From a virus, in the IMG/VR virus record IMGVR_UViG_3300026178_000071: DNA of 58,682 nt; one strand, written 5' to 3'. Made by a program: the position numbers and the translations under genes. Shown here one piece after another: positions 27,098 through 44,771 of the stretch. Below the pieces are notes generated by a model that was not told where the DNA came from, ran no database searches, and saw only the letters and a list, made by a program, of their open reading frames with translations. Each line of letters starts with the position of its first letter. Positions within the stretch are counted from its first letter, which is position 1.

Positions 27098-27880
27098 CTA
27101 GCGATTACCCCACCGCTTGCTGAACTCCTTGGCAGGCATCTTCCCCGATTGAAGCAGGGCAAGATCACGCTGCCACGATGCGCCAGCGTTGACAGGGGTA
27201 GCGGGCGATGCTGTATCGACCGTGTTCATACCAGCGCCCTGTAGGGCCTTGGCAACCTTCTCCGCTACCATCTTCTCGATGGAGGCAGGGTCGGCGGCGC
27301 GCTTGTATGTTTCGAGTTCGCCTTGCAGCTTCGCGGCCTTCTTCGTAGCCAGATCACGTTCAAATTGCGCTGCGCCGGTCGCTCCGCTGTAGGAGCGGGG
27401 GTCGAAGTCTGCAATGCTCAACCCCTCCTCAGTGACACGTTGACGCACATGGGCGTCCCACTTCTGCCACGCGGAGAATGACTCGGCTGCTTGCAAGTCG
27501 GCAAGCTGACGCACGTAACGGCGCTGTTCGTCGGGGTCGGAGGAATCTTCAATCGCTTGCTCTAGGGCTTTGCGTTGGGCTTCCTGTGCCTCACGCTCGC
27601 GCTGTTCCATCTGCGCCTGCAATCGCTCGCGCTCCTTGCGCTCTGCGGCGAGTTGCGTGTCCATCTTCGATTTCCAAGCCTGGAAGTCCGGCAACTCGTC
27701 CAGGTTGACGCGCTTAGGCGGCGCGCTCTGGCTTCGTTCGACGGGTTCCTTCCTGCTTGTCGCTGCTTCTGACTCCTCGGTTGCCAGATCATCAGGGGCC
27801 TCGATCTCGGTCGTAGTCCCATCCGGTTCTAGCTCCTCGGCGTCAGAACCATCAACTGCCCGGTACAGTTCGTCTACCAT
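27098..27880 (-). CDS. Scaffolding protein
   Basis: Acidic, coiled-coil-rich (ERKERERLQAQMEQREREAQEAQRKALEQ) and immediately upstream of the capsid gene. ATG 27880 follows TAGGAG. Confidence 0.55.
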   Translation of the reverse strand: MVDELYRAVDGSDAEELEPDGTTTEIEAPDDLATEESEAATSRKEPVERSQSAPPKRVNLDELPDFQAWKSKMDTQLAAERKERERLQAQMEQREREAQEAQRKALEQAIEDSSDPDEQRRYVRQLADLQAAESFSAWQKWDAHVRQRVTEEGLSIADFDPRSYSGATGAAQFERDLATKKAAKLQGELETYKRAADPASIEKMVAEKVAKALQGAGMNTVDTASPATPVNAGASWQRDLALLQSGKMPAKEFSKRWGNR

Positions 27881-27952
27881 TCGTGCTACTCCTATCCGTT
27901 CTGGTAATGTGCGGCCCTTATGCGGGCTTACATGCACACTCTACAGGGGGGG

Positions 27953-27983: not shown

Positions 27984-28020
27984 CTAAAAACAGAAACCCC
28001 AGGCTATGACACCTGGGGTT
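27984..28020 (-). terminator. Intrinsic terminator after the giant gene
   Basis: 9-bp stem aaccccagg/cctggggtt (27995-28003 / 28012-28020) followed on the minus strand by TTTCTGTTTTT. Confidence 0.6.
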
Positions 28021-28046
28021 CCTGCGGAGGGGAGGGAATGAAGCTA

Positions 28047-31000
28047 TCAGCGCGGCGGCACGGGCGGCGGAGTTGGTATCGCCCCGTAGTCCGTTGGCGG
28101 CGCGGCGCTCGGCGGCACGGGTGGCACGTTCGGCGCGTTGCCGGGTATGCTCGCCAGCAGCGCCGTGTAGTCGGTCTTGACGCCTGTCTGCTTCATCAGC
28201 CACAACAGGTACTTCAACAGGCGCGCCCAAGCCTGCGGGTTCTTGGCAATCCAGGCCGCGCGTTCCTCTGCCGACATGCCGTAGTACTGGTCAGCCAGCG
28301 CCATTGTGTCGGTCCCGAACAGCAAGCCCACGAACGTATCAAAGGCCGGGTCGTCGGTGCGTTCTTCCTGCACCATCCGGCTCAGGTCGGCGGCGGTCCA
28401 CGTCTCGTAGGCGGGCGGTTCGGTCGGCGTGCTCGGTGCGTCCGGCGTAGGTGTGCTTGGCGTACCGTAAGAGCGCCCACCACCGCCATAGCTGCGCCCA
28501 CCGTAGCTTGACTTGCGCGGCGGGTAGAGGGGCACGTAGCGCCCGGTGCTCCCGGTCCTGGTGTCGCCGTAGATGAAGTCATAGTATGCGGACACCTGCG
28601 CCCACTTCTCAGGGTTGGCTTCCCGCCACTTCTTACGGGCGTCCCCCTCCTTGGGGATGCTGCTGTACTCGTCGGCCCACCCTGCGACCTGCGTCCCGAA
28701 CTGCTTCTCGGCAGCGTCATACTTGGCGGAGAGTTCGGATTGTGTGGCCGTGGTCTCCTTGCCCGTCGCCGGGGAGTACTTCTGGTAGGTTGCGCTTGTG
28801 GCCTTGGTGTTGCGGCTGGCCTCCCACCCCGCCTTTAGCCACGGGTATTTGGCAAGCACAGCCTTCTTGTCTGCGCCCTCGGCGTAGTACGCGGCGTTGG
28901 CCTCCCAATATTCCTCGATGGTGTGCCCCGTGGCCTTCTCGATTGCGCTGTATATGGCCTGCTGCTCGACCTTGTACTGCTCGTACTCGGCCTTCTGCGT
29001 CGGTGACGGCACGCCAACCGTTGCGGCCAGCTTCTCTATCGCGGCCTGGAACGCCTTGACCTCGTATGACTTCCACTTGGACAGGTCGCCCTTGTCAGCG
29101 TAGAACCGGCTCATCATTTCCTCGGTCAACCCGGCCTCGGCAAGCGCGGTCTTGCGCTGCGCGCCAGGTGGTAGCCGGTCCAGCACGGAGTAGCCGTAGT
29201 CCTTCAACCGCTCAGCCGGGTCGGTCTCCCGCGCCATACTCACAGCCTTCTTGAATGGGTACTTTTTCTCGAACTCATCGAGCATCTTGCGCCAAGCGGC
29301 TTCGCTCGCGCCCTTGTCACGGGCGTCCCATATCTCGCCCCATTCCTTGTTCATGCGGTCGATCTCGATGTCGCTCATATCGCGGGCCTTGAAGCCAGCA
29401 CCTAACAGGTAGGAACCCAGGTTCCCAGGTGCCCGCTTGACGGCCTCCGCTTGCCGTGCCATGTCCCAGGCTTCCCCGCTCTGCTTGTAAGCGGCGTCCT
29501 GGAACTGTTCCTCAGTGATCTCGCCCGACTTCCACAGCGTGTACAGCGCATACCCGATACGGCGGCGCTCCCAGGTGTCCCCACCCTTGACGTTCTGGAG
29601 GAACAACTGCTCCGGCGTGAAGCCACCCGCGGGAATGACACCCTGCAAGCCGGGGACCGCTTCCCGTGCCAGCGCGGTCGCACCCTTCAGTGCGCGCGAC
29701 CACGGGAACAGGTAGCCCACCCACTCGTCAGAGGCTTCCCGGTAGCCCTGGCTCGACAGCCACGCAGCGTAGGCCCAGGTGATGAGCGGGTGGAGGCTCG
29801 GTCCCCAATTGCCAATCTCCGTCATGGCCTTGCCGCCCGGTGCTTCATTTCTGGTACGGGTCTCGAAGTCGTTGAGCAAGGCTTGCAACGGCATGAGCGT
29901 GCGTTCCAGGTCGAAGTACAGTTGCGTATCGGCAAACGGGACTCTGATCTGATCTTCCCAATACTCCGGCATCTCGGCGTCCTGGTCGTCCATGACGGCT
30001 TTGTAGTACTCCCGGTTGGTCTTGGCAAGCGCCGTCTTGTACCGGGCGTAGTTGCTCACCCAGGACGGATTAGTAGCCAACCGCTGCGCCCAATTCGGGT
30101 AGGTGAACGTGTACCAGTAGGACCACGGCATGATGTAGGCCAGCCACTCGTTTATCATGCGCTTGTCGGCGTAGTCGCCCAGGGCAAAGTTACGCATTTG
30201 CGTAGCAAGGTTGGCGACGGTGGCCTTGTCCCGCACCATGTTCGGAATGATCTTCTTGTTCGCAAGCTCGCGCAGTATGCGGGCTTGGTCGGGTGTGATG
30301 GGTGGCAGCGGGTCAGGCGCGCCGGTCAGTTGGCTCCGCATCTTGGCCCATACGGGTTGCATGGCTCCCGCCGATGCGATGCGTGCGCCGTTCGTGCTCA
30401 TGGCGCTGCGCCCAAAGATGCGGTTGAGTAGCTCTTGCGCCTCCGGCGTGCCGGGTGCGGTAATACCTACGCCCGCGCCTCCGCCCGTGAAGTCAAGCAC
30501 GTCGCCGCCTTTGGTCTCATACGTGCTGATCGGGAACCGCTCAACGAACGCATTGACCTTTTCTTCCGGCACGAACCAGAACGAACCGCGCGGGCTGAAC
30601 TCGGCCCCGGCCTCCATGAGCGGAACCTTGTGGGACATCTTTGCCCCGTCTACCGCGATCATGCCGTCCTGCCGCATACGAAGCATATACTCTGCTCCGC
30701 CACTACCTGATAGCATGACACGATCTCCGGCCCGCAAGTCCTCCATCAGCGTTGCTAGAGAGTGTTGCCGTTGGGCGTTCTTGCCGAACGCCCTGGCTAC
30801 CTCTTGGATATTACCGGGTCTAATTACCAACCCTGAGACATAGCGACCGCTCGCAACGTCGCGCATGTTCATGTATCGTAGGCGCAATGTCTCAAGCGCG
30901 TCGCCGGTCATGCTTTGCACAACCCGCTTGATGCGTGATGCCTCGCCGGTCGGTGTCAGCTTGATAACACCTTCAAGAATACCCATCTTCTCGTTGGCTT

Positions 31001-34000
31001 GATTGCGGACCTCGTGCAACGTCAGGTCCGGCAGTAGTTCCGTAGAGCGGAGTACCTCGCCGCGCAGCCGGGCAGTTCGGGCGGCACGCGCTTCGGCGGC
31101 TCCCGCTGCGATTTCGTCATACGCTTCTACGAAAATATCCTCGACCCGCTTGGCCTGTGCAAGCGGCATGAGTTGCAACTCCATCAGCAAGTTGTTGACT
31201 ACCGCACCTTCGAGCGGCTGCTGGCGGGGCACCCGGCCCCCACCGTGCGGTAACTGTTCCATGAAGGCCGAACCCAGGAACTCTGACTTAAGATCGTCCG
31301 GCAGGTTGAACCATGTTTGTTCCATTGCGGCCCGACCGATGCCGCCGAATATCTCGAACACGTCCAGTTCAGAGGCTCCGGCAGAACCGGCTTGCCCCTT
31401 CGCCAGCGCGCCAAGGGCTTGCATACGGTTGGCAATGGCCGCAATGAACTTGCGCTCTCCGGCGCTGCCTGTATGCAGCATGTCAACCACGGGCGACGAG
31501 CGTTGCCCTGAGCGGTCCACCCGGCCAAGCGTCTGCTTGAACATATCGGCTCGCCACTGGTAGTCTGCCATGATGAGCCTGCGACGGCCCGAACCAATGT
31601 CGTGCAAGTTGATACCCGTGGTCCCGGCCTGCGAGATAACCATGACATTGCGGCGTCCCTGCTGGAAGTCGTTCATCATCAGCTCGCGCTTCGATGCGCT
31701 GACCTTGCCGATGACAAAGCCTACGTTCTGCTTGCCGAACCGTTCTTCTATCGTGGCGATAGGGTCGCGCAATTCCGGCAGTTCCTCGATTCTTTCCCGC
31801 AAGATCGTGATTTCTTCCAGGGCTTCAGGAATCGCCTGCGGCTGTGAGAATGTGCCGTTGGGTAGTTCGTCAATGGCCCAGGTGTTGACGGTGTTCAGCG
31901 CGGACGCCAAACCGCCCCGCCCAACCTCCTGCGGATTGACGGACTCGGTGTAGATGACAACCTGCTCGCCCCGTTCGAGTGCTTGTTCTGCCTCATCGAG
32001 AACTGTATCAAGACGGAAGTCGAACATGCGGCGCTTGTACTCAGCTTGCAGGCGTGCCCGCGGCCCGAACGTGTTGCCACTCTGCTTGTTGGCTCCCTTG
32101 TACTTGCGCCATGCTAATTCAACGTCGCGCATCAGGCCGATAACCTTGTCCATCTCATCGGCCTGCGCCTGAGTGAGTGGGTTCTCCTTGATGTTGAACT
32201 CCACGCCACCGCGCCACAAGTCCCGGCTGATGTACTTGCCCTTGCGCTTTAGCTCACGCATGAGTTGTTCCATCTCCGCCATTGTCATTGACGTGCGGAA
32301 GATATCCTTGTTGCCGCGGCGCTGCCTGCGGTTGGCGTTGAGGCGGGCAATCTCGGTCGAGTCGCTGGAAGCGTAAGCGGCGGCTGCGGCGTCAATGTCC
32401 GTGGCCGCGTGCTTTGCATCGTCGGCGTCCCGGCCCTGGATACGGTTGATGAAGTCGTCCCACCCGGCATCGTCCATCGCCCATTCACGGAGACCGTACA
32501 GGTATTTGAGGTCGTCGGGGTCGGTCGCGGGCGTAGCGGTGAAGTAGCCCAAGCGTGCGCCCTTACTCATCATGTGGGCGTGCATATCACGCCATGCCTT
32601 GCCCACGTTCGCGCCGTCCACGTTCTTGTACTCGTGGGCCTCGTCAGCGAACCACGTATCAAAGCCGACCTGCTTCATCGAGTCAAGGTAACTGTTGAAG
32701 TTGTACTTGTCGATGATGTAAATGCCCTTGTCGAACAACGGCAGGGGTTCTCCGGCCTTGGCCCCCTTGAAGTCGGTGATGCGAACGAAGTTGTATTCGC
32801 CCGCCAGATCACCAGCAACAAGCCTGATCTCGTTCATCAGGCCCGTCACGTTGTTGTCGTTCATCGTGGAGAGCAGGATACGGTTGGCCTTGCCCTTGGC
32901 AAACAGGTCCACCACCGCGCCCGCAATCTCCCGGCTCTTACCTACGCCAACATCGTCAGCGACCAGGATTGCATGACCGGCTTCGTTCGCCTGTCCGATA
33001 GCGCGGACCACATCGTATTGCTCGTCAGAGATGTCGCCGCGCCGTAGAATGTCATCTATGGCCGGGTGTGGCTGATAGGTGAGTTCGGGGTATGGCGCGC
33101 CCGCAAGCGTCTGCGTTTCTACAACGAGTCGGGGGTGGGGAGAAACCCTTTGTCCGCTGCGGCTTTGATAAATAGTAAAGTGTTCACTATGGCTTGCTGC
33201 CTCGGTCTGTTCGGCAAGCTCGCGCTGGATGCGGGCGGTAAGCTCGGCGTCTGACTCGGCGGCAATGGCGCGCTTGGCTGCGGCAGGGACGGACCCTCCG
33301 CCTGAAGCGGGCTTGGGCTGCTTGGCAGGTATCGCCCCTGGCGCTCCTGCACTTCCAGCTTTTCCGTCACCAGCTTTTCCAGCCACTCCCGGCGTTGGGT
33401 TAGGGTCAGCGTCTCGCCCGTCAACGGGTGTTCGAGCGGGAACCACTCCGGTAGCAGCGTCACCGGGTCGATCTCCCCGATCTCCCACGGCTCCTGTTGT
33501 TCCGCCCACCCCCCCTCTGGTGGAGGTAGGTCGTCCAGGTCGAGACCCCTGAGCATTTCCAGTAGGTTGAACATTCTTGACCTCACTTATAGGTTGTACG
33601 GCTTGCGGTCGCGGTTCGATGCGCTCGATCAGCGTAGCAAGCTCGTCCCAATTTTTCGGTTGCTCCCCTCCAATGGCAGAGATGAACTTACCACCCGGCC
33701 ACTTGCCACGATCTACCACCAGTATCACGCTCTCAACGTTCGTGCCACGTTGCAAGTATGCTTTCGGTGGTGATTGAATTATAGCACGAACGGTGTGCTT
33801 TTGGTTCAACCAATCTAAAAAGCCGGTCGATTCAAGCATGGTCGTTGGCATCAGCGCAACCATGCGCCCGCCGTCCGGCAGCGTCTTGATGACCTGGGCG
33901 AAGTGGCGTTCTGCCACGTCAACCGGAATGAACTCGCCCGCAATCGCCGTGCCGTATTTCCCCGTGGAATACTTGCCCCACGGGGGATTGAGGATTGCTA

Positions 34001-37000
34001 CGTCTGCCCTGACACCGTTGACGGCCAGCATCAGCGAGTCGCCTTCGAGCACTTCATCAAAGCCCATCTTGCGCAGCACCGCCGCGCGGCGCTTGGATAG
34101 CTCGTTGACAACGACTTTCTTGACCCTGCCGCGCAGTTCTGCCACCAGTCCGCCCGTGCCCCCGTTGGGTTCGAGCGCAATGTCAGTCTTGCGCAGGTTG
34201 GCCGCGTAGTCCATCGCCACGCCCAAGGGGTAGGGCGTGGAGAACTGCTGTAGCTCGGTGATTGCCACACCGCGCGACCGGCGAATAAGGTTGTTCTCCC
34301 AATCTGCGGACAGGGCGATATGCTTGCGCACGTTCCCGCGCACGTCCCGCGCAGCCTTGGTAAGTCGATCAACCGTGACCGCTTCGAGCACATCGTATAG
34401 CTCGTCAATGTCGGCTTCGTTGTAGGCCGACCAACCGGGGACGAGTTGCGCCGCCTGCTTGTACAGTTCCTCCCGGTCCTTCGGGAACGTGCCTTCGATG
34501 TGTAGCTTGTTGAGACCGCTGTATAGCAAGTCAACGCGCTCGTCCATGTCCTCGACGCGCGGCAGGTCTGATGCAATCCGCTCCGGCTTGTGCGGCTTGA
34601 TCTCGGCGTCCCACCACTCTTGCAGGTTGGCATAGCCCTTCTTTTGCAAGTCACGCTTGATGCGGTCGTAGTCGAACGGTTGCCCCAACGTCTTGCCATC
34701 GACATAGTAGGGGTTGTCTTTGTACAGTAGCTCGGACTCCCACCAGCCGCGGAACGTGGGTTGTTCGCCCTGTAGCGCCAGCTTGCGGAGCGCGTCCAGT
34801 CTGTCCGGCTCGGTCTCGGAAATCAGTGTCAGGTTAGAAGCGTGAACCTTCATGCGGTTGCCGCTTCGTAGTTCAATCACGGCATAGCCGGTTGCCGTGT
34901 CGTGGTTGATGACGGTTACTTCGGTCCCTTGGAACATCGCCACGTTGCCCCGCTCGAACTTCGGTTGGGCAGCGCGCGGTGGCGGTGCGGCTTGGCTCAG
35001 GTCCGGCTTGGGTGCGGCCTGATACTCGCCGTGGTACAGGATAACCGGGGTGTCCCGGTCGGGGAAACGAACGGTGATAATGTCGTCGTTGACGGTGAGA
35101 ACTTCACCGATCTGTGGCGGCTTGCCGTACGCGGTGTACACGATCTGTTCGCCAGCCGTAGCCCGGTAGGTTTGCGGCGCTACTGGTTCGGGACCGGCAG
35201 CGGGTTCCGGCTCCGGCATACGCTGCGGCTCTGGCCTGGGCGGAGTCTGCAACGTGGTAGCCGGAGGCGTCGTTACAACCTCGTCTACTTCGCCCGCCAA
35301 CTCACGGGCCAGCTTCAACGTCCTGCTGTTCTCCGTGGCATACCACATCTTTTGGAACTTGCTCCACCGGAACCCCGCGCCCTTCACCCGGCTAAGCGTG
35401 GCATCGTCGGGCTTACCCTTGAAGTGGAGTTCGATACCATCACCGCGCGGGCCGGTCCCGGTCTTGTAGGTCGTTCCGGTCACTGACGTAGCGGCGGGTG
35501 CGGTTGGGCCTGCGGCTTGCGGTTCGACCTTGGGCGCGGCGGGGCGTTTGGTCTTGGCGTAGCCCTCGACTTTCATCGCTTCGTCAGGGTATTCCTTGGC
35601 CCACTCATCGAATACCTTGCGCTTCTCAGCAGCCTTTTGCCTGTTGTAAACCGCGCTGCGCTTGTGCTCCCTGATCTTCTCCGGCTTCTTCGCACGGCTT
35701 GCCATCAGGTCGGAGTTCCTGCCGCTTTGTAGACTAATCTCGTAACTTCGCCAAAGGTCATCGGGTCTCATTGGCAGGTTCATGTATACCGGGTCGGGTA
35801 TGAAGTCCGGCGCTTCGCCAACTTCGCGGGTGATTTCTTCTCCACCCTGGTAAACAAGGTGCCCCTGGTCAGTCTTGACGGTGTAGGAGTAATGAACTTC
35901 CTTGCCACCAAACCCGCCCCAACCTTGCATTGTGACCGAACTAACATGGTCAATAGTGCCGTGCTCGCCGTCACGGGTGATAACCCGCTCGCCCTCCTTG
36001 AATATCTCCGGCTCCTTTGCTGCCTCCGGCGCAACTTGCTGCGCTGCCTCCGGCGCAGCCTTGGGTGCTGGCTCAACCCAACCCTTCGGCACGTCATGCA
36101 TGTCGGCCAGTTCGTCGGGCAGCAACCAATCCCGGTTCATCCATGAGTGATGATTTACTTCAAGCTCGATGCCTGAGCGGGTCGGAACCATACGCACGGG
36201 TTCAGACAGGCGCATACCGTTGCGCACGATGGACCTGACGCCCCGTTCGTCCTCGTAGATATTCAACCCGTCCTTGTTCGTGCCAATCACACTGTAGGTC
36301 TGTTCCTTCTCGGCCTTGGGCTTCGGCTTGGGTTCGGCCTTGGGTGTAGGGGCGGCGGGAGGTTCCGGCGCGGCGGTCGGTGCGGTGCGGGATAGCCCAT
36401 TCTCCTTGTACTTGGCGTCAAGGAACGTTTCCCAAGTCCTGTCATCGACTTCGCCTTGGTCGCGCAACCGGGCCAGCTTGCCAATGTCCTCCAAGTCACC
36501 GCGCCGGGTGATCTCAGGGGCAATCTGCTGCCCGCGCTCTATGTCGGTCCTGATCTGCTCGGCTTCGGCGTTCCACTCGGCGCGCTCTCGCTCGTACTGC
36601 TCGGCCTTGCGCCGGTACTCGGCGTCCTCCGGCGTCTCAACGCGCGGCGCTTCCGGTTCAACGCGCGGGGCTTCTGGCGCTGCGGGTGCCTTCGGCGTAG
36701 GTGCGTAGCTCGGCGGCATACGACCCGGCTCGTTCTCCCACGTCACGGCGGGAGACTCATACGGGCGGCGCGGGGTTGGCGCTGCTGGCGCAGGGGCGGC
36801 GGTCGGCGGCAAGACCTCTACGGGTGCCCATTCCGCAAGCGGTAGAACTCGACCATCATCAAGCTCGTAACGCATTGCACCGGGAGCGTAGCCCTCGCCT
36901 GCCGGACCATTGACAACACCCTCCTGGGCGGCATAACGAATCCGCGTACCCTGGGGCACGTCCTTGGCCCATGTCTTTCCTGGCGGTGCTACGCGCTGCG

Positions 37001-40000
37001 GTGCGGTCGGGGCTTCTGGTTCAACGCGCGGCGGCTCCGGCGCTGCGGTCATGGTGGGCAACTCAACGCGCGGCGCTTCCGGCGCGGGCTTCGTCAACCA
37101 ATCCGGCGCGGGTCGGGTTACTTCTGCTTCGGGTTCGGCTCGGACGGTTGGCGGAACTGCTTCCGCCATGTCGGGCTTCCCGAATCCGGCCTCCACGGGG
37201 CGATCACGGGGCGTAACCGGGACTTCTGCGGTTGCTCCGCGCTTGGCGGCTTCGTCGGCAATTTGCTGCTGCTGTTTGAGGATGATGCCATTGACTATAC
37301 CCTCTCTGTCTGTTGGTAGTTCAATGTCCCCGAACATGCTCGTCTGCTGCATGTTCGGCGTGTCACCCATGACCGTATCAGCGTACTCTTGCAGGAACTC
37401 ACGCACCATCTTCTGACGGCGGCTGATTAGGTCCAGGTGTTCGAGTAGCTGTTCCTGCAACTCGGTCAGTTCGCTCTCGTGCATGGTGACGAGCGTCCCG
37501 ATCTGGTCGGGGTGCAAGTACTCCCGCACGGTGAAACCCTGCTGCCGTAAGCGGGCCAGCATCTCAACGGCTGCGGCTATATCGGCCTCAATGGAGTATT
37601 CGCTCGCCTTGGCCCCGCTCCTGATTGCGGACTCAACCTTTGATAGCTTGCCAAGCGCACCGTATACCCCGGCCTCGATGGTCTTGATACCTGGGTCGGC
37701 GGAGTCGATGAAGATCGCGGCCAGCCGTTTACCAATGTCGCTCTGGAAGGTCTTGGCAAGCAGGGCATTCTTCAAGCGTTCCCGTCCGGCTGCGCTTAGG
37801 TTGCCTTCCTTGTCGATGAGGCTTCCGCGCTGTGCGACTGAGAAAGACTCAATGAACTCGTTGACCACTCCCTTGTTGGACGGCGATAACAGCGCGCCGT
37901 CTACGCTCTGATTGTCGCCAATCGCAAGGTAGGCTATCCGTGTATCGCTGATGCGCTCCACATCGTTGATTGCGTCCTCAGCGGCAGAGGCGGCAAGCTG
38001 GCGCTTCTCGTTGCTCTCCCGTGCGAACTGTACCAAATCTATGCCCTCGTCGTCCAGTTCTCGGACGAGTACGGGGTTCTTCATGGTCACGAACGATGCC
38101 GGGTCGATGCCAAACTGTGCGGCCCGGTCCTGTAGCATGTTCCGGTAAGCGGCAAGTTTCTGCGGCTCCCGGTCCCTGATGTAGCGCAAGGCCAGCGACC
38201 GACCGTTACCGGCCAGCACAACGTTTTCCTTCGTGACCACCATCGGCCCATCTTCCACGAACCGATGATCTACCAGTAGCCAGTCAGGATTGAACGTTGC
38301 AACGATCTCATCGACCTGAGACTTGCTCGCTTGCGCGGTGCGGTCCCGTGGCTGAAGCTCCTTCGGGAATTGTTCGTTGACACGGAACGCATCATCATGC
38401 GATACGTTCAGGTCGTCAAGGTCCACCACCTTGAACCGCAAGCTGTAAGGCTTGTCAGCCTTGATGCCGTAGGCTTGCGTATCCCGGCCCATGATACCTG
38501 GCGCTCTGATGCGGAAGTCCCAATAGTCACCGGGCGTTGCCGGTCGGAAGTCCACAACGGTAGGAGGCTCATACGGTTTGCCCTTGGGCTTCTCTAGCTT
38601 CGGCTTGGCTACTGCGTTACCTTGCGTTACAGCGCGTTTCTTGCCGCGCAACTCAGCGAGCGAACCATCATTGTACTTCTTCGCCCGCCCAAGATACTCC
38701 CACACCTTATTGTACTGCTCGCGTGATAGGTTGCGCAGATCGGGCGTGTCGAACTGTCCGGCTTCCTCGCCTGCCAGTTCCAGCGCGGCGTTGATGGTGG
38801 CCGTCTTTTCCTTGGGCGTCAGGCTCTCGACCGGGCGGGGGCGTCCGGCTCCCGCAGTCTTGTAATCGCTCATGCGCTTCCAAAGGGCGTCCATTTCCTT
38901 CCCGGTCAGGGACCGCAACTGCGGCAATAGGTCAGCGTCATCGGGTGGCGCGGCAGTTGGCGGCGGCTCCAATTCGGCCATACGCTGCTGCACGTTGGCG
39001 CGCATCGCTGGCCCCTGGCCCTGCAATACTTCTTCCTCTGGCTCACCGTCAAGAATACGGCGGGCGTACTCGTCTGCCTTGTTCCGCGCTCCCTGTGCGA
39101 TACCCTCGCCCACACCCTTGAGCGCGCTTGTTTCGTCGGCGGGCGCTGGTGCGCTTTCACCGAACGGTGAAACGGTTGGCGCTGGTGAAGTCGGTCCTGC
39201 GGGCGGCGACGGCGGACCCTTCGGCGGAACCTGTCCCGATGCTATCCGGCCCGTTGCGCGCTTTACATCCTCGTTGAACTCCAAGACGCGATTCTTCTGT
39301 CGCTCGTGCATGGCGTTCCACAGCACGCGGCGCTGCTTATTTACGTCCGCCCAAATGTCGCTGGTCGATGCGCCTGCCGCAAAGAAGGCGTCCTGCTTGG
39401 CTCGCCAGTAGTCGTTCACTAACTTGTCAGACTTGTCCCAGGTCTCTGAGACGTACTCCCGATACTTGCTCTGATTGACAATCGCAGCATCATCGAAGCC
39501 AAGCTCCGGCATCAGTTGCACGTCAAGTTCGTCCAACTCCCGCATGATCGCAAGCCGATTGCGACGACGCGCGGCCCTGGTCTCCCGCCACAATTCATTG
39601 CGGGCGAACTCGTCTAGCCCGCGCTGTACCTCGAACGTGGTCGCCATCAGCGCATCGTCAACCTCTTGCGCCTTACGCACTATCGCCACGCTCTTGTCAA
39701 GATAGGCGTTCAGGTCGTCAGCCGTGACGGTTTCAGACTCCATGATGTCGAGCGTGTCCGCTCGCAGTTCCTCAACTGCGGCGGATAGCTCGGCGTTACC
39801 GTTCATCTCCGCTTCTCTGACGGTGAGGCGGGCTACCGCTTCCTCCGGCGTGCGGGCTGCGCTTACCACTTCGTCAACGGCTTCCACAGCTTCCGGTCCC
39901 CCGGCCTTCATTGCCTCCTCGCGCACGTCCTCCGGCACGGTCAGCCGTGAGTCGGGCGGAGTCACCGCAGCGGGGGAGGGGGCAACAGTGCCTTCGGCGG

Positions 40001-42698
40001 CCTTCGGCTGCGGCTTCGTCGGTGCGGGGATAGGCTCGGCGGGCGGAGTAGTTGCCTGCGGCGTGGGGGCAGACGGGGCAACAACTGGCGCGGGAGAGGG
40101 CGCGGGCGGTCGGGCGGCTGGAGGAGCACCGCCACCCGGCCCGCCAATCATCTTCTCGATCTCGTCGCGCACTTCCTGCGGGTTCATGCACGGGTCAAGT
40201 TTGCGCTGTAGGTACTGCACTTGCGCCTTGCTGAAACCTTGCGCTTCCAACTCCTTCGTGATGCGGCGCACGGTCTTGGGCCATACCTGCTGCCAGTAGT
40301 TGCGGACGTGGTGCGCCATGATGCGCTCGGACGCATACCGCTCGAAGTTCTGCCCCAACTGTAGCGTATAGCTCAGCTTGTCTTTCAGGGTGCTGGTCTC
40401 AATGGCCTTGAACACATCGCGCAACCGCATCGGCTCGCTGATCGACTTGATGTATTCCTGCGCCTTCTGCCGGGACTTCCACATATCGCCCGCGGTCCCA
40501 AGCCCTTGCTTGGTCTGCCAGGGGGCCGGTCCCCACCGGGTCCACAGTTCCCTAAGTGAGTCGGCACGCTGGATAGGCGAGACGCCATCGACCACAGCCG
40601 TAAAGAGGTTGTTGGCTGCGTTGCGGAAAGCGTAGCCGGGGTTGGTCCCCAGGAACATGATTGACACGGCGTTCGAGACGTTGCCGCGCCACTTGCGGAG
40701 GGCCGACCGCTGCGATGGGTACTTGTACTCCGTGACCTTCATGCCGTCCACTTCTTTCGTGATCGGCGTGGCGTAGATGCGTTTGGCGGCTGACTCGTAC
40801 TCCTGTGCCAAGGCAGACACCGCGGCGAGGTCGTCACCCTTCGCCTCGTCCATGATCTTCTGCAACTTGGAGAAGTCCACGTCACCCGACCGGGCGGCAG
40901 CGGGCAGCTTGTCAACCATCTCCTTCGCTTCGATTAGGGCCTGCTGCGCCTTGTTCGCGGCGGTCTGTGCCTTGGCGATCTTGCTGGCTACTGCACCCTT
41001 GGCCCGCAAATCTTCCAAGTCCTTCACCCTGGCCTTTACGATGTTGTCCAGGTCGTTGACCTTGCTCAGCGCCTTGGCCCTGGCTGCGGTGGCCTTGGCT
41101 ACGGTGCCCTCGTCTACGGTCCCGAACATCTCCCGCATCAAGATCACGGTGCGCTTGGCCTGTCTCGATTGCGAGAAACCCCCGGTCAGTTGCACAATGT
41201 CAGGGTTGTCGGGGTCCGCCAAGAACGCCCGCAAGATCGCGGTCATCGGGTTCTCGTCAGGGTCTACAGCAAGCCGTGCGATTAGGTCGGGGTTGTTCGT
41301 CGCAGCATCGCGGGCGGCTTCGGAGATGCGTGTCACCGTGTCGGCGGACTGAATGACGTGGGCGTGCGCCAGCGATTCAGGCGTGGGTTGCCACGGCGTG
41401 ATGCGCCCCAACAGGGACAAGGCCCGCTTCTGCGCCTTGCTCGTCTCATCACCGATCTCCGCGAGCGTCAACACCCGCTGCGTGCCCTTGCGTGTCAGCG
41501 GAGTCATGGCTGGCCCGGTCAGGTCCATTGCCTTGTTGATCTTGCGGATTGTGTTGGCTTCATCGAGCACATCGAGCGCCATGAGCGGGTCACTCACCCA
41601 ATCGACAAGGAACTGATACGCCATCGGGGATTGCTCGCGGTAGGCTTCACGGGCGGCGACCTTGCCCTCGTGCGTCAGGTTCTTGAACCCTTCCCACATG
41701 CGCGCCGCGCGCTCCCGGTTCCACGCATCGTAAGCGGCTTTCCCCTGGCCTAGCGGTGCGCCCTGCTGTTGGATAGCCTCCATGCCGCGATTGAGAAAGC
41801 CTGTCCGCATCTCCCGTTCCAGGTTGGCAAGCTCTTGCCGCATGGCGTTGATTTCGGGAACGCCCATACTGGCCCGTCCGCCCCCGATTTGCGATGTGGC
41901 TTCCATGATGCTGCGCTGTAGGTCGGCCTTCTTCTCCCGGTAGGCTGACACCTTCTCGCCGTAGTCCTTCGGGCTGGTGCTCTGCCAAATGTGACCCAGG
42001 AGGGGAGCGGTTGTCACGTCCTGCACCCTGGCCGCACCGTACAGCAAGCCACCACCCAGGCCCATCGACTTAGCTACCTGCCACTCCTCGCCAAACGTGC
42101 GGGGGTCAGTCGGGACCTTGGCTTGCGCTTCCTTGCTCCCCGTGAACAGCCGGTCAATCAGGTCATACGTTGCGGGCTTCTCATACGCTTGGTTCAGAGA
42201 CGTATCTATCCGGCGCAAGGCAGGAGCAATAGCTTTACCCACGGCCTCGCCCAACTCCGGCAACTCACCCCATACACCCCGTGCCACGTCCAACCACGGT
42301 GCAACGAGCGGCGCAATCGCGGCGGCATTGCGCACACCCGGCACGGGCGGCGCTTCCCGCGTTGTCTCGATGCTCGGCGCGCCCATCTCGTTGACTTGCC
42401 GCATGGCCGACATGGTAGCGGGATTGAAGCCGGGCAACTCAGGCGGCAGTACAGGTGCGTTTACCTGCCGCATCGGGGAGAGACCGGGGTCTACGTCATG
42501 TTCCTCTGCGGGCGGAGTCCAGCGCGGAGCACCCCCGCCACCTGTCCAGCGCGTGAAGTCCGGCCCGAACGATGGACGCTCCACGCCCACGGTCGGCGGA
42601 GTCGGTGCGCTTTGCGGCTCGGTCGGTTGCTGCGGCTTGGCCTTGCTCTTTGGCAAGGTCGGGAACCATTGCCCGTAGAAGTTGATGTACTCTGCCAA
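28047..42698 (-). CDS. Giant polyvalent protein (4,883 aa): ParB-like + small KxW domain + N6-adenine-type MTase + SNF2/Strawberry-notch-type helicase, with long unassigned N- and C-terminal regions
   Basis: A single uninterrupted ORF in the track. The TTG start lies 7 nt after GGGGAG and 1 nt after the upstream stop. Motifs are listed in the sub-features. A terminator follows the stop. Confidence 0.85.
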   Translation of the reverse strand: MAEYINFYGQWFPTLPKSKAKPQQPTEPQSAPTPPTVGVERPSFGPDFTRWTGGGGAPRWTPPAEEHDVDPGLSPMRQVNAPVLPPELPGFNPATMSAMRQVNEMGAPSIETTREAPPVPGVRNAAAIAPLVAPWLDVARGVWGELPELGEAVGKAIAPALRRIDTSLNQAYEKPATYDLIDRLFTGSKEAQAKVPTDPRTFGEEWQVAKSMGLGGGLLYGAARVQDVTTAPLLGHIWQSTSPKDYGEKVSAYREKKADLQRSIMEATSQIGGGRASMGVPEINAMRQELANLEREMRTGFLNRGMEAIQQQGAPLGQGKAAYDAWNRERAARMWEGFKNLTHEGKVAAREAYREQSPMAYQFLVDWVSDPLMALDVLDEANTIRKINKAMDLTGPAMTPLTRKGTQRVLTLAEIGDETSKAQKRALSLLGRITPWQPTPESLAHAHVIQSADTVTRISEAARDAATNNPDLIARLAVDPDENPMTAILRAFLADPDNPDIVQLTGGFSQSRQAKRTVILMREMFGTVDEGTVAKATAARAKALSKVNDLDNIVKARVKDLEDLRAKGAVASKIAKAQTAANKAQQALIEAKEMVDKLPAAARSGDVDFSKLQKIMDEAKGDDLAAVSALAQEYESAAKRIYATPITKEVDGMKVTEYKYPSQRSALRKWRGNVSNAVSIMFLGTNPGYAFRNAANNLFTAVVDGVSPIQRADSLRELWTRWGPAPWQTKQGLGTAGDMWKSRQKAQEYIKSISEPMRLRDVFKAIETSTLKDKLSYTLQLGQNFERYASERIMAHHVRNYWQQVWPKTVRRITKELEAQGFSKAQVQYLQRKLDPCMNPQEVRDEIEKMIGGPGGGAPPAARPPAPSPAPVVAPSAPTPQATTPPAEPIPAPTKPQPKAAEGTVAPSPAAVTPPDSRLTVPEDVREEAMKAGGPEAVEAVDEVVSAARTPEEAVARLTVREAEMNGNAELSAAVEELRADTLDIMESETVTADDLNAYLDKSVAIVRKAQEVDDALMATTFEVQRGLDEFARNELWRETRAARRRNRLAIMRELDELDVQLMPELGFDDAAIVNQSKYREYVSETWDKSDKLVNDYWRAKQDAFFAAGASTSDIWADVNKQRRVLWNAMHERQKNRVLEFNEDVKRATGRIASGQVPPKGPPSPPAGPTSPAPTVSPFGESAPAPADETSALKGVGEGIAQGARNKADEYARRILDGEPEEEVLQGQGPAMRANVQQRMAELEPPPTAAPPDDADLLPQLRSLTGKEMDALWKRMSDYKTAGAGRPRPVESLTPKEKTATINAALELAGEEAGQFDTPDLRNLSREQYNKVWEYLGRAKKYNDGSLAELRGKKRAVTQGNAVAKPKLEKPKGKPYEPPTVVDFRPATPGDYWDFRIRAPGIMGRDTQAYGIKADKPYSLRFKVVDLDDLNVSHDDAFRVNEQFPKELQPRDRTAQASKSQVDEIVATFNPDWLLVDHRFVEDGPMVVTKENVVLAGNGRSLALRYIRDREPQKLAAYRNMLQDRAAQFGIDPASFVTMKNPVLVRELDDEGIDLVQFARESNEKRQLAASAAEDAINDVERISDTRIAYLAIGDNQSVDGALLSPSNKGVVNEFIESFSVAQRGSLIDKEGNLSAAGRERLKNALLAKTFQSDIGKRLAAIFIDSADPGIKTIEAGVYGALGKLSKVESAIRSGAKASEYSIEADIAAAVEMLARLRQQGFTVREYLHPDQIGTLVTMHESELTELQEQLLEHLDLISRRQKMVREFLQEYADTVMGDTPNMQQTSMFGDIELPTDREGIVNGIILKQQQQIADEAAKRGATAEVPVTPRDRPVEAGFGKPDMAEAVPPTVRAEPEAEVTRPAPDWLTKPAPEAPRVELPTMTAAPEPPRVEPEAPTAPQRVAPPGKTWAKDVPQGTRIRYAAQEGVVNGPAGEGYAPGAMRYELDDGRVLPLAEWAPVEVLPPTAAPAPAAPTPRRPYESPAVTWENEPGRMPPSYAPTPKAPAAPEAPRVEPEAPRVETPEDAEYRRKAEQYERERAEWNAEAEQIRTDIERGQQIAPEITRRGDLEDIGKLARLRDQGEVDDRTWETFLDAKYKENGLSRTAPTAAPEPPAAPTPKAEPKPKPKAEKEQTYSVIGTNKDGLNIYEDERGVRSIVRNGMRLSEPVRMVPTRSGIELEVNHHSWMNRDWLLPDELADMHDVPKGWVEPAPKAAPEAAQQVAPEAAKEPEIFKEGERVITRDGEHGTIDHVSSVTMQGWGGFGGKEVHYSYTVKTDQGHLVYQGGEEITREVGEAPDFIPDPVYMNLPMRPDDLWRSYEISLQSGRNSDLMASRAKKPEKIREHKRSAVYNRQKAAEKRKVFDEWAKEYPDEAMKVEGYAKTKRPAAPKVEPQAAGPTAPAATSVTGTTYKTGTGPRGDGIELHFKGKPDDATLSRVKGAGFRWSKFQKMWYATENSRTLKLARELAGEVDEVVTTPPATTLQTPPRPEPQRMPEPEPAAGPEPVAPQTYRATAGEQIVYTAYGKPPQIGEVLTVNDDIITVRFPDRDTPVILYHGEYQAAPKPDLSQAAPPPRAAQPKFERGNVAMFQGTEVTVINHDTATGYAVIELRSGNRMKVHASNLTLISETEPDRLDALRKLALQGEQPTFRGWWESELLYKDNPYYVDGKTLGQPFDYDRIKRDLQKKGYANLQEWWDAEIKPHKPERIASDLPRVEDMDERVDLLYSGLNKLHIEGTFPKDREELYKQAAQLVPGWSAYNEADIDELYDVLEAVTVDRLTKAARDVRGNVRKHIALSADWENNLIRRSRGVAITELQQFSTPYPLGVAMDYAANLRKTDIALEPNGGTGGLVAELRGRVKKVVVNELSKRRAAVLRKMGFDEVLEGDSLMLAVNGVRADVAILNPPWGKYSTGKYGTAIAGEFIPVDVAERHFAQVIKTLPDGGRMVALMPTTMLESTGFLDWLNQKHTVRAIIQSPPKAYLQRGTNVESVILVVDRGKWPGGKFISAIGGEQPKNWDELATLIERIEPRPQAVQPISEVKNVQPTGNAQGSRPGRPTSTRGGVGGTTGAVGDRGDRPGDAATGVVPARTPVDGRDADPNPTPGVAGKAGDGKAGSAGAPGAIPAKQPKPASGGGSVPAAAKRAIAAESDAELTARIQRELAEQTEAASHSEHFTIYQSRSGQRVSPHPRLVVETQTLAGAPYPELTYQPHPAIDDILRRGDISDEQYDVVRAIGQANEAGHAILVADDVGVGKSREIAGAVVDLFAKGKANRILLSTMNDNNVTGLMNEIRLVAGDLAGEYNFVRITDFKGAKAGEPLPLFDKGIYIIDKYNFNSYLDSMKQVGFDTWFADEAHEYKNVDGANVGKAWRDMHAHMMSKGARLGYFTATPATDPDDLKYLYGLREWAMDDAGWDDFINRIQGRDADDAKHAATDIDAAAAAYASSDSTEIARLNANRRQRRGNKDIFRTSMTMAEMEQLMRELKRKGKYISRDLWRGGVEFNIKENPLTQAQADEMDKVIGLMRDVELAWRKYKGANKQSGNTFGPRARLQAEYKRRMFDFRLDTVLDEAEQALERGEQVVIYTESVNPQEVGRGGLASALNTVNTWAIDELPNGTFSQPQAIPEALEEITILRERIEELPELRDPIATIEERFGKQNVGFVIGKVSASKRELMMNDFQQGRRNVMVISQAGTTGINLHDIGSGRRRLIMADYQWRADMFKQTLGRVDRSGQRSSPVVDMLHTGSAGERKFIAAIANRMQALGALAKGQAGSAGASELDVFEIFGGIGRAAMEQTWFNLPDDLKSEFLGSAFMEQLPHGGGRVPRQQPLEGAVVNNLLMELQLMPLAQAKRVEDIFVEAYDEIAAGAAEARAARTARLRGEVLRSTELLPDLTLHEVRNQANEKMGILEGVIKLTPTGEASRIKRVVQSMTGDALETLRLRYMNMRDVASGRYVSGLVIRPGNIQEVARAFGKNAQRQHSLATLMEDLRAGDRVMLSGSGGAEYMLRMRQDGMIAVDGAKMSHKVPLMEAGAEFSPRGSFWFVPEEKVNAFVERFPISTYETKGGDVLDFTGGGAGVGITAPGTPEAQELLNRIFGRSAMSTNGARIASAGAMQPVWAKMRSQLTGAPDPLPPITPDQARILRELANKKIIPNMVRDKATVANLATQMRNFALGDYADKRMINEWLAYIMPWSYWYTFTYPNWAQRLATNPSWVSNYARYKTALAKTNREYYKAVMDDQDAEMPEYWEDQIRVPFADTQLYFDLERTLMPLQALLNDFETRTRNEAPGGKAMTEIGNWGPSLHPLITWAYAAWLSSQGYREASDEWVGYLFPWSRALKGATALAREAVPGLQGVIPAGGFTPEQLFLQNVKGGDTWERRRIGYALYTLWKSGEITEEQFQDAAYKQSGEAWDMARQAEAVKRAPGNLGSYLLGAGFKARDMSDIEIDRMNKEWGEIWDARDKGASEAAWRKMLDEFEKKYPFKKAVSMARETDPAERLKDYGYSVLDRLPPGAQRKTALAEAGLTEEMMSRFYADKGDLSKWKSYEVKAFQAAIEKLAATVGVPSPTQKAEYEQYKVEQQAIYSAIEKATGHTIEEYWEANAAYYAEGADKKAVLAKYPWLKAGWEASRNTKATSATYQKYSPATGKETTATQSELSAKYDAAEKQFGTQVAGWADEYSSIPKEGDARKKWREANPEKWAQVSAYYDFIYGDTRTGSTGRYVPLYPPRKSSYGGRSYGGGGRSYGTPSTPTPDAPSTPTEPPAYETWTAADLSRMVQEERTDDPAFDTFVGLLFGTDTMALADQYYGMSAEERAAWIAKNPQAWARLLKYLLWLMKQTGVKTDYTALLASIPGNAPNVPPVPPSAAPPTDYGAIPTPPPVPPR
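31329..33101 (-). other. Domain of the giant ORF: superfamily-2 helicase, SNF2/Strawberry-notch-like (aa ~3200-3790)
   Basis: DDVGVGKS (aa 3248-3255), FADEAHEYKN (DEAH 3352-3355), YFTATPATD, ISQAGTTGINLH, QTLGRVDRSGQ (from aa 3722), GERKFIAAIANRMQALGALAKGQ. Confidence 0.75.
33729..34271 (-). other. Domain of the giant ORF: amino-methyltransferase (N6-adenine type), aa ~2810-2990
   Basis: Motif I is ALEPNGGTGGL (about aa 2842). Motif IV is ILNPPWGK (NPPW, aa 2904-2907). Confidence 0.75.
35304..35486 (-). other. Domain of the giant ORF: small DUF3560/DUF5710-like KxW module (aa ~2405-2465)
   Basis: GIELHFKGKPDDATLSRVKGAGFRWSKFQKMWYATE. A similar pattern occurs in the free-standing gene at 51483-51767. 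Confidence 0.4.
38004..38447 (-). other. Domain of the giant ORF: ParB/Srx-fold nuclease-like domain of the DdrB-ParB type (aa ~1418-1565)
   Basis: NVSHDD...FPKELQPRDR (QPRDR, aa 1449-1453) ... VVLAGNGRSLAL (GNGR, aa 1497-1500). Confidence 0.55.
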
Positions 42699-42699: not shown

Positions 42700-43188
42700 T
42701 TATATCTCCCCGGTTTTCAGGTAGGCGACACCCGTCTGCTGCGGTGCGGCGGTCAGCATACGGCCCAGGTAGTTGAACGCATCGCTTACGGTCCACGCCC
42801 GTTGTTCGTTCGGTGCGGCAAAGCCCGTCTTGTACGAAGTCAGGCCACCCCATACCTTGCCCCAATCGTCGGCGGTCAGCGGCATACCCGTCTTGTTCTG
42901 CCATGCGTTGAGCATGTTGTAGTAGTCGTTCTGTGCGGCCTTCTCCTCGCCGCGCGTGGCGTAGTACTCGGTCGGGTCTGCGCCCAGGAAGTCCTTGAGT
43001 CCGGTCAGGTATTGCGCGGGTAGCCCGCCATAGCTCGGCACTTCTGGCGCACTCGGCGCACCACCCCCACCATAACTCGGACGGGCGACGTTGCCGAGGG
43101 AGTCCAGCCGCCTGCCGTACTGGTCGTAGCTCACGAGACCGTCATCGCTGTAGTACTTGGCGTTCGGTGGGTGATAGGTTGTTGCCAT
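42700..43188 (-). CDS. Hypothetical head-module protein with SYGG repeats
   Basis: PSYGGGGAPSAPEVPSYGG. Its stop lies 1 nt before the giant ORF start. Confidence 0.5.
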   Translation of the reverse strand: MATTYHPPNAKYYSDDGLVSYDQYGRRLDSLGNVARPSYGGGGAPSAPEVPSYGGLPAQYLTGLKDFLGADPTEYYATRGEEKAAQNDYYNMLNAWQNKTGMPLTADDWGKVWGGLTSYKTGFAAPNEQRAWTVSDAFNYLGRMLTAAPQQTGVAYLKTGEI

Positions 43189-43191
43189 GCG

Positions 43192-43398
43192 TTATACTCC
43201 GGTTCGTTGCGCTTGATGTAGGGCGCGGGCCAGTTGCCGCGCGAACTTTTCGTCTGTCCGTGCGTACTCCATTGCTTGCGGAAGGTATTCCTCGAACGTC
43301 ATCTTGGGTTGCTTCACCTGCGGAAGCCGGTCGGAGAGGCTGTCAAGCTCTCGCTCGGCACGCTGTCCGATATGATTCAACACGTCAGACACGATCAT
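43192..43398 (-). CDS. Hypothetical protein (68 aa)
   Basis: ORF track; tight packing. Confidence 0.45.
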   Translation of the reverse strand: MIVSDVLNHIGQRAERELDSLSDRLPQVKQPKMTFEEYLPQAMEYARTDEKFARQLARALHQAQRTGV

Positions 43399-43401
43399 CT
43401 A

Positions 43402-44049: not shown

Positions 44050-44052
44050 GTG

Positions 44053-44403: not shown

Positions 44404-44404
44404 G

Positions 44405-44662: not shown

Positions 44663-44771
44663 CGCTTCCCCTGTCTCACTTTGCGCTTGATGCTCCGGCG
44701 CTTGGTTGTCTTGCAGTTGTCCTTGCTCGGCTTGGCCGTAGTCCCGCTCACCCAACCAACCTCCCGAATTG

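Follow-up and report, generated by a model that had tools for sequence, protein, structure and literature searches.

Polyvalent proteins, which Iyer, Burroughs, Anand, de Souza and Aravind (2017) predicted to be delivered together with the DNA and to act at invasion (PMC5512222), are the closest described class for the product of a giant open reading frame (ORF) in IMG/VR virus record IMGVR_UViG_3300026178_000071, a stretch of 58,682 nucleotides referred to here as the window. In a six-frame ORF list this ORF occupies positions 28047..42698 on the minus strand and encodes 4,883 amino acids (aa) in 14,652 nt, from a TTG start to a TGA stop. As in polyvalent proteins, at least two effector domains share one polypeptide (here ParB, methyltransferase and helicase) and the gene belongs to a virion or late gene block. 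The hub domains of the class, a DdrB-like ParB and an adenine methylase-SNF2 dyad including its rarer Strawberry-notch-like (Sno) form, are also those of the giant protein. Membership in the class, proposed in an initial annotation of the window, was borne out by three effector types in one phage ORF. In contrast to the described proteins, the effector block is internal and lies between the halves of a large family that is absent from Pfam and PHROGs, and unlike many of them the giant protein has no match to a zincin metallopeptidase (MPTase), MuF or Pfam LPD domain in Pfam scans.

Phage P1 packages both DarB, a methyltransferase-helicase, and DdrB, a ParB-like protein, in its head. P1 is a myovirus, and the packaging of its Dar functions depends on DarA/Hdf. 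The giant ORF has in common with this system a homologous DdrB ParB, a methyltransferase placed N-terminal to a superfamily 2 (SF2) helicase as in DarB, and a head-related gene context. The two differ in that the functions reside on one polypeptide here and on separate proteins in P1, and in that the helicase is of the Sno type with undetectable homology to DarB.

Comparable giants are described from short-tailed phages. The DarB-like proteins JC1 gp69 (4,515 aa) and Bcep22 gp75 (4,602 aa) account for 22% of the genome, and mass spectrometry places such a protein in purified virions (PMC9144972). The present protein is similar in its share of a ~60-kb genome (~22-25% across these phages), in its methyltransferase and helicase content and in belonging to a phage that is probably short-tailed; the Bcep22-like gene, unlike the one described here, closes the morphogenesis module and borders on the lysis genes, and its product lacks the C-terminal module described below. 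Gp27 of Burro and the Microbacterium cluster EK phages exceeds 4,400 aa, covers ~25% of a podovirus genome, and is virion-associated and probably processed (PMC7302621). Scale, genome fraction and the scarcity of recognisable domains are shared with this protein, whereas the Burro gene lies upstream of the portal gene, and tblastn searches of the phage collection gave no match to cluster EK or Burro phages. Phi24B gp47, abundant in the virions of another short-tailed phage, has been proposed to be encapsidated and ejected (bioRxiv 10.64898/2026.04.10.717836); this 933W-type protein of 2,811 aa carries LPD1, LPD5, LPD38 and a MuF-C metallopeptidase, none of which was found in the giant protein. 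A gene position right after the portal and a head-incorporation module carrying effectors also recall the SPP1 gp7 and Mu F fusions, from which the present protein differs by a conserved part ~6 times larger, by cargo that is internal instead of terminal, and by having no detected MuF domain.

Podoviruses in which a giant polyvalent virion protein takes up between a fifth and a quarter of the genome are accordingly already documented, and all three types of cargo enzyme belong to the described hub domains. What is new is the lineage, the union of a DdrB-ParB and a Sno-type methylase-helicase in one chain and, above all, the family that carries them, here called the chassis, with its exchangeable internal slot. 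The reading that we favour, with a probability of roughly 0.55, is that the chassis-borne cargo is packaged, injected and directed against restriction.

The chassis family and its internal slot

Comparison with related sequences makes it near certain that the giant protein consists of a conserved chassis of ~1,900 aa whose middle has received an insertion of DNA-modifying or anti-restriction-type cargo. A relative of 2,221 aa (P0008) corresponds to giant aa 1-1185 (49% identity) joined straight to aa 4078-4852 (69% identity), and the phage that encodes it has the same gene order as the window, with 75% identity in TerL, 79% in the portal protein, 66% in the scaffold-like protein and 88% in the capsid protein. 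The cassette that separates the two parts, aa 1186-4077 (30468..39143; like all parts of the giant ORF, on the minus strand), is absent from P0008. Four IMG/VR contigs from different samples (L018-L021) have a ParB-only cassette instead, in a 2,706-aa version of the protein whose slot of ~660 aa holds ddrB-ParB alone; two of these four contigs span the neighbouring genes, and the capsid protein is again 88% identical.

Among 113 family representatives the gap between the N- and C-terminal modules had a median of 236 aa. The giant protein has the maximum, 2,936 aa, followed by 1,213 aa, and the range in the family extends down to ~20 aa, with slots of ~200 aa or a ParB-only content in close relatives (those with 88% capsid identity). 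More distant members carry ART-PolyVal together with ddrB-ParB (P0015) or ParB alone (P0010, P0017), a Sno helicase is followed by ParB in L001 and L025, and other members have long stretches without a known domain. As judged from these sequences, the phage is the extreme member of a variable-slot architecture and carries the largest load seen. The initial annotation had regarded the ORF as a simple fusion of Dar modules and some 2,500 motif-less residues as a reservoir of new activities; the first view gave way to the inserted-cargo architecture, and the residues concerned turned out to be mostly conserved chassis. In this way ~2,000 formerly dark residues gain a family context, and a large uncharacterised family is flagged for annotation databases. 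The parts outside the chassis that are without assignment are aa 1-300, 1186-1400 and 3800-4077.

The flanking regions, aa ~300-1185 and 4078-4852, are almost certainly the two halves of one uncharacterised all-helical family. The N-module (aa ~301-1185, 39144..41798) is built of long helical hairpins and contains the most conserved chassis motif, N..F...YMG.SPGYAFRN, at aa ~665-700. The C-module (aa 4078-4852, 28143..30467) is rich in Trp and Tyr and starts at a conserved GITAPGT (aa 4078-4085, 30444-30467). Near its end are two copies of FG..ADxY...W..NP..WA, at ~aa 4665-4710 and 4793-4835 (28565-28700 and 28190-28325), and the two to four copies in relatives point to a small helical unit that is repeated. 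AlphaFold2 (AF2) models of both modules were all-helical, with a predicted local distance difference test (pLDDT) score of 81.8 for the N-module and 67.5 for the C-module.

Pieces of the giant protein retrieved only 3-6 matches each from an index of 5.8 billion proteins, and the family was revealed by an exhaustive HMMER profile search. With the C-terminal region this search recovered 1,254 clusters at E <= 1e-3 and 465 at E <= 1e-30; family counts refer to clusters at 50% identity, so that the family has at least 1,254 of them. The top full-length members have a median length of 1,871 aa, with the C-module near their C-terminus. A jackhmmer search with giant aa 1-1190 showed that the part at aa ~300-1100 is present in 120 of the 152 family representatives retrieved.

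The most conserved chassis motif recurs at aa 4041-4134 of Bcep22 gp75 (NC_005262, L015) with 18.4 bits, as compared with a maximum of 6.9 bits in ~2,000 block-shuffled copies; beyond this short motif no similarity of gp75 to the chassis was found. As a sequence match it is a lead, not proof, and it could mark a capsid-targeting or ejection element used across otherwise unrelated giant phage proteins. The 'PLxRFG' giant of Klebsiella phage ZX1 was considered as a further carrier and rejected, as the motif was not found there; it does contain a methyltransferase and a helicase akin to those of the present cargo, in reverse order. A second candidate, gp09 (1,648 aa) of Streptomyces phage Immanuel3, was rejected as a chassis homologue since it matched neither chassis hidden Markov model (HMM) and shared synteny alone. 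This cultured podovirus (L009), whose capsid protein is distantly related, has the layout TerL, lysin, portal and five small genes, followed by gp09 (6506-11452).

The continuity of the ORF, claimed in the initial annotation together with its share of a quarter of the genome, was confirmed. The first and last 24 bases of the window (1-24 and 58659-58682) are identical, and the record therefore represents a complete circular genome of 58,658 bp, of which the giant ORF makes up 25.0%. Its translation has no internal stop, and 4,883 stop-free codons would arise by chance at the base composition of the window with a probability of ~1e-63. G+C content follows the order position 3 > position 1 > position 2 throughout, the exception being a low-complexity Gly/Pro linker at aa 3001-3300. 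Database records show the identical protein twice for the 58,682-bp contig and again for a 5.9-kb fragment, and an independent contig of 37,265 bp encodes it with 100% identity across aa 119-4883; its continuity is therefore independent of any single assembly.

An assembly or sequencing artefact, be it a chimera or a false joining of genes, is hardly credible on these grounds. The identical protein on independent contigs, the coding-like codon positions and the improbability of so long a stop-free frame all speak against it, as do short-read relatives with unbroken chassis-gene ORFs of 2,221-3,755 aa. What could be held in its favour is that related ENA contigs split the homologous region into many genes. 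Those contigs, however, also divide the capsid gene between three frames, and the splits are therefore errors of long-read assembly; the possibility that the ORF represents several separate genes was rejected for this reason. The ENA long-read contigs L001, L005, L006 and L007 (ERZ250395xx) contain many frameshifts, fragmented gene calls and fragmented protein clusters. Among these relatives L006 carries the methyltransferase-helicase unit described below, which L005 and L007 lack.

ParB, methyltransferase and helicase cargo

All ten motifs quoted in the initial annotation are present within a few residues of the positions given there, and the profile searches that it called for, run with Pfam on the whole protein and on tiles, placed the ParB and helicase families above curated cut-offs. 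The DdrB-like ParB module (aa 1401-1830, 37209..38498) comprises a Pfam domain and a conserved C-terminal extension that reaches ~aa 1790-1830. The domain, ddrB-ParB (PF18763), spans aa 1415-1548 with E = 2.4e-26; it scores 92.7 bits where 27.6 are required, and the alignment takes in positions 3-120 of the 121 in the profile. The module also matches phrog_5143 (E = 5.6e-56) and carries the motifs ELQPRDR (aa 1447) and GNGR (aa 1497-1500), in keeping with the conserved active-site Arg motif of such domains. In a BLAST comparison aa 44-301 of P1 DdrB aligned to giant aa 1422-1690 with 30% identity over ~260 aa (E = 2e-27). The ParB/DdrB assignment of the initial annotation is upheld by these matches, and by sequence the module is a true homologue of P1 DdrB. 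Searches of PDB sequences with the whole giant protein or with the ParB module gave no match.

The ParB module is followed by a string of small domains (aa 1831-2691, 34626..37208) separated by Pro-rich linkers, of which the whole protein has 12. The string includes a PYESP..W.NEPGRM motif (aa 1977-1999, 36702-36770), a helical domain at aa 2012-2100 common to P0009 and L005, a small domain at aa 2134-2188 common to L006, and a GFRWSKFQKMWYA element at aa 2420-2466 with weak DUF5710-type and 'primase'-PHROG matches only. No match was obtained for this region in a PDB sequence search. In P0008 the sequence PYESP..W.GEPGRM.P.Y runs directly into GIVAPGT, while in the giant protein ~2,080 aa separate the two motifs. 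PYESP..EPGRM and GI[TV]APGT may be remnants of an ancestral junction, or else sites of cleavage or hotspots of recombination.

A cleavage site would accord with a polyprotein that is cut at its linkers into ParB, methyltransferase-helicase and chassis pieces, so that the virion holds no species of 530 kDa, the mass of the giant protein. We regard this as improbable. The slot does have short conserved motifs on both sides, with PYESP..EPGRM..Y preceding it and GI[TV]APGT opening the C-module, and there are precedents in the proteolytic processing of P1 DdrB and DarA (PMC5512222; P1 annotation) and in the ~250 kDa species of Burro virions, set against a prediction of >4,400 aa (PMC7302621). On the other side, profile searches of the giant protein and its neighbours revealed neither a protease gene nor an MPTase domain, and large proteins are reported from virions in the cases of N4 vRNAP and JC1 gp69 (PMC9144972, PMC5512222).

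The methyltransferase domain (aa 2787-3040, 33579..34340) displays FSTPYP (TP motif), LEPNGGTGG (motif I) and NPPW (motif IV); a TP-capped helix, a GxG motif and an NPPW motif, the signature of EcoKI/TaqI-like N6A methyltransferases, are features of a clade described by Iyer et al. (PMC5512222). Among the PHROGs it matched phrog_6263 'DNA methyltransferase' (E = 1.3e-8) and phrog_9133 (E = 6e-14), and in tblastn it matched phage N6-adenine methylases and 'DarB-like' proteins with E = 3e-7 to 3e-5. Matches in the PDB were weak (KsgA motif I, E = 1e-3; EcoKI M, E = 0.3). The amino-methyltransferase of the initial annotation is in part sustained, through the PHROG families, the motifs and the domains of the homologue P0155 described below, while a direct Pfam match is lacking. 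The region is thus read as a putative N6-adenine-type methyltransferase, less directly supported than the ParB and helicase domains.

The Strawberry-notch-type SNF2 ATPase (aa 3187-3800, 31299..33140) has GVGKS at aa 3252, DEAH at aa 3352, TATP and QTLGRVDRSGQ. AAA_34 (PF13872) was matched from aa 3187 with E = 4e-20 and 72.3 bits against a cut-off of 27, and Helicase_C_4 (PF13871) at aa 3676-3799 with E = 2.5e-21 and 77.1 bits against a cut-off of 30.5, in agreement with the helicase type named in the initial annotation. Matches to the SNF2 profiles of DISARM DrmD were weak and far under cut-offs, an NCBIfam scan of the giant protein gave SNF2 and KsgA/Erm matches that were all sub-threshold, and a PDB sequence search with the helicase returned generic DEAD-box matches only.

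Together with its own C-terminal region the methyltransferase-helicase unit extends over aa 2692-4058 (30525..34625). At 34% identity across aa 2692-3845 and 3951-4058 it is collinear with P0155, a chassis-free protein of 1,637 aa, and collinear homology extends to P0156-P0160; searches with the chassis HMMs found no match in P0155-P0160. The precomputed Pfam domains of P0155 are N6_Mtase (PF02384), Eco57I (PF07669), AAA_34 (PF13872) and Helicase_C_4 (PF13871). Since a collinear chassis-free homologue exists, methyltransferase and Sno helicase are taken, on sequence grounds, as one acquired unit that also exists without a chassis elsewhere. Residues 3951-4058, a candidate for the C-terminal SnoC winged-helix domain, are conserved with the C-termini of P0155 and P0006, and the one profile match in this region is a weak one to RAMA (E = 0.055). 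A jackhmmer search run locally did not recruit P1 DarB, and the likeness of the two is one of domain logic, not of family, with the unit on the Sno-type branch.

Many phages encode stand-alone Dam-like methyltransferases that modify replicated DNA before packaging. By the same route the giant protein might be a late-expressed cytoplasmic enzyme that stays out of the virion, methylates and perhaps remodels replicated DNA, owes its position in the head operon to late timing and passes protection on through the modified DNA. The chassis-free occurrence of the methyltransferase-Sno unit fits such an enzyme, as does the fact that no packaging signal or MuF domain was detected in Pfam scans. It is nevertheless distinctly unlikely, because it leaves unexplained why, in many lineages, cargo is always inserted at one hinge of a conserved structural-block protein, because DdrB-ParB and ART-PolyVal are typical of proteins delivered at entry (PMC5512222), and because comparable giants occur in virions.

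Proposed packaging and injection

The favoured reading, in which the cargo travels in the head and is injected, draws on the position of the gene. On the minus strand the gene order is TerL, portal, small ORFs, giant ORF, scaffold-like ORF and major capsid protein, which confirms the location between portal plus small genes and scaffold plus capsid genes given in the initial annotation, with the proviso that the portal matches are weak. Every relative examined has the chassis-family gene directly upstream of the scaffold-like and capsid genes, and where the contig is long enough it is also downstream of the portal and small genes. The full synteny (portal, small genes, chassis, scaffold-like, capsid) was seen in L010, L011, L020-L023 and L004; L002 and L003 show the downstream capsid side only, owing to contig extent. 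Searches of the encoded proteins against PHROGs and Pfam found no tape-measure candidate in the genome. A large, helical and conserved protein that is encoded where genes for minor head or ejection proteins usually lie, and whose genome has no recognised tape measure, is most economically read as a head-internal protein that leaves with the DNA. Packaging and injection are plausible on this basis, the arguments being gene position and precedents in unrelated phages.

If so, the chassis would direct the giant protein into the procapsid at assembly, as minor head and ejection proteins from that gene position do, and at infection the protein would be expelled through portal and tail before or with the DNA. 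Threading of the domains and their later refolding would be made possible by the flexible linkers. The SNF2 motor might then track along the incoming DNA while the linked methyltransferase modifies adenines, giving protection from restriction in cis as proposed for P1 DarB, and the ParB module would contribute an activity like that of DdrB, which may be that of a nuclease, an NTPase or a DNA-binding protein. The cargo slot would serve the lineage as its route for loading entry-phase effectors.

Several observations weigh against this reading. The phage is uncultured, and virion association is read from gene position and analogy. By sequence no resemblance of the chassis to a known packaged or ejected protein was detected, save for the one short motif of Bcep22 gp75. 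A scan of 24 family members gave no consistent Pfam or PHROG match for the chassis, and no Phage_Mu_F domain was found in the giant protein, its tiles or the same 24 members. Foldseek searches with the N-module against the PDB, and with the C-module against the PDB and BFVD, returned generic helical bundles at E > 0.2. On the side of the cargo, the methyltransferase had no direct match, N6_Mtase included, in Pfam scans of the whole protein and of its tiles, and the best BLAST matches of the unit to P1 DarB were E = 0.005 in the helicase C motif and 0.23 in the NPPW region. The fused Dar-like functions proposed in the initial annotation therefore hold as homology for DdrB and as analogy for DarB, homology to the latter not being supported at E 0.005-0.23. 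No capsid protease or cleavage site was identified, a chain of 530 kDa would have to traverse a narrow channel, and late expression would also fit a cytoplasmic enzyme that modifies progeny DNA before packaging. As regards the polyvalent-protein class, LPD and zincin MPTase domains, which are frequent in it yet not obligatory, gave no match in the whole and tiled Pfam scans of the giant protein (E <= 0.1-1).

The same gene position and helical architecture could also reflect an essential ejection or conduit protein, functionally comparable to a tape measure or to T7 gp15/gp16, that would form the trans-envelope channel of a short-tailed phage, with the cargo secondary and maybe cleaved off. 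This is compatible with packaging and injection and overlaps with them in part, the core function being DNA delivery and not anti-defence. Large cargo is missing from most of the family, which counts at least 1,254 clusters, so that the chassis must have a function of its own. The long helical hairpins of the AF2 models, the missing tape-measure gene and a similar interpretation of phi24B gp47 (bioRxiv 10.64898/2026.04.10.717836) point in the same direction, as do two weak tape-measure-type matches, one of giant aa 372-1152 to phrog_167 (E = 2.8e-5) and one of P0003 to PF10145 (E = 7e-4, below cut-off, in one of the 24 members). These matches, weak and confined to one member each of 24, may be an effect of helical composition. 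In addition, no transmembrane-like or strongly hydrophobic segment was found in the giant protein, chassis included, the chassis has no peptidoglycan hydrolase domain, and the T7 core proteins, whose structures are in the PDB, were not among its fold matches there. A conduit as the primary role of the chassis is for these reasons considered unlikely.

A wider extension of the favoured reading, in which the chassis family as a whole forms a widespread new class of head-internal or ejection proteins of an uncultured short-tailed phage lineage, with its hinge as a slot for exchangeable anti-defence cargo (ParB, ADP-ribosyltransferase, methyltransferase-SNF2 and domains of no known identity), and thus a modular platform for protein injection distinct from MuF fusions, is put forward tentatively and with the odds somewhat against it. 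If the giant protein is packaged and ejected, phages would load huge and rapidly exchangeable enzyme payloads through one hinge of a structural protein, not through separate genes or terminal fusions. The natural variants, with a slot of 200 aa, ParB only, or ParB plus methyltransferase-helicase, can be compared for the cargo capacity of a T=7-sized head, for portal passage and for the defences defeated. Under the same premise the chassis could be used as a natural scaffold that delivers engineered proteins into bacteria.

Gene ends, neighbouring genes and lineage

The features that the initial annotation described at both ends of the gene were recovered from the sequence. A Shine-Dalgarno-like GGGGAG (42706..42711, minus strand; CTCCCC on the plus strand) is located 7 nt 5' of the TTG, and the TAA stop of the preceding gene ends 1 nt before it. 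The database gene call of the matching protein (P0007) begins at an internal GTG, codon 119. Residues 1-118 align with the relatives P0008, P0009 and the L018 ORF from the first residue of each, and because this part is kept in relatives from residue 1 the TTG is preferred over the GTG; by this comparison the P0007 gene start is probably too short. The same residues (42345-42698, minus strand) hold a duplicated PMRQVN / MSAMRQVN motif. They belong to a Pro-rich N-terminal region (aa 1-300, 41799..42698), conservation of which is limited to the closest relatives. Downstream, 22 nt past the stop, is an intrinsic-terminator-like hairpin of 15 bp followed by UUUUU (27985..28025, minus strand; -28.1 kcal/mol, z = -5.3), and none of 200 shuffles was equally stable. 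A simple consensus terminator scan of the window did not list this hairpin.

TerL (47169-48506, minus strand) has a strong PHROG match. The putative portal gene (45124..47172, minus strand) is syntenic and its product is 79-80% identical in relatives; its matches are weak (phrog_64, E = 1.4e-4; Pfam SPP1_portal, E = 1.6e-4, below cut-off). Five small ORFs of 162, 68, 215, 116 and 151 aa (42700..44860, minus strand) fill the interval between portal and giant ORF and are conserved in relatives, and a sixth is possible at 44802-45065 (minus strand). Profile searches against PHROGs and Pfam found no family match for these small ORFs or for the scaffold-like ORF of 279 aa (27098..27937, minus strand), which is acidic, has coiled-coil character and always lies between the chassis and capsid genes. 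The major capsid protein (25828..27060, minus strand) matches phrog_1357 (E = 4.5e-17) and is 88% identical in L010 and L020.

No near relative of the giant ORF was found by megablast in 50,697 GenBank phage records, and neither the first 1,420 aa of the giant protein nor the portal protein had a tblastn match in the GenBank phage collection. Single-sequence queries retrieved no relatives in IMG/VR scans. A scan of GTDB genomes matched two tiny contigs of metagenome-assembled genomes (MAGs) and identified no host or prophage. The capsid protein is distantly related to those of 'Podoviridae sp.' genomes (Manatee Spring) and of Streptomyces Beephvirinae phages. Because of this capsid kinship the phage is treated as probably short-tailed, and the nearest annotated relative bears a podovirus label.

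Downstream of the capsid gene the structural block includes a 795-aa protein without known identity and a 553-aa protein (21512-23173, minus strand) with a C-terminal Amidase_2 domain and 340 N-terminal aa without a match, which may be a virion-associated lysin rather than an endolysin, or both. A 423-aa protein within the tail/structural block (19115-20386, minus strand) combines two enzymes, a family-2 glycosyltransferase at aa 3-138 and, at aa 274-391, a class I methyltransferase, and might modify a virion or host surface glycan. It is followed by a collagen-like tail fibre of 971 aa with Gly-X-Y repeats (16188-19103, minus strand), which matched many PHROG fibre families with very high scores. 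Non-structural genes include an FtsK/SpoIIIE-like ATPase (55742-57049, minus strand), a RecT-type annealing protein (8366-9469, minus strand), a replication initiator (1523-2650, minus strand) and a 'DNA topoisomerase' PHROG match (49983-51371, plus strand), and no tRNA genes were found in the genome. One relative of 41 kb (L011; GCA_041643135.1, contig JBGGHD010000201.1), in which the chassis protein has 2,146 aa, carries a tyrosine integrase gene at 3602-4519, and given this gene some members of the lineage may be temperate.

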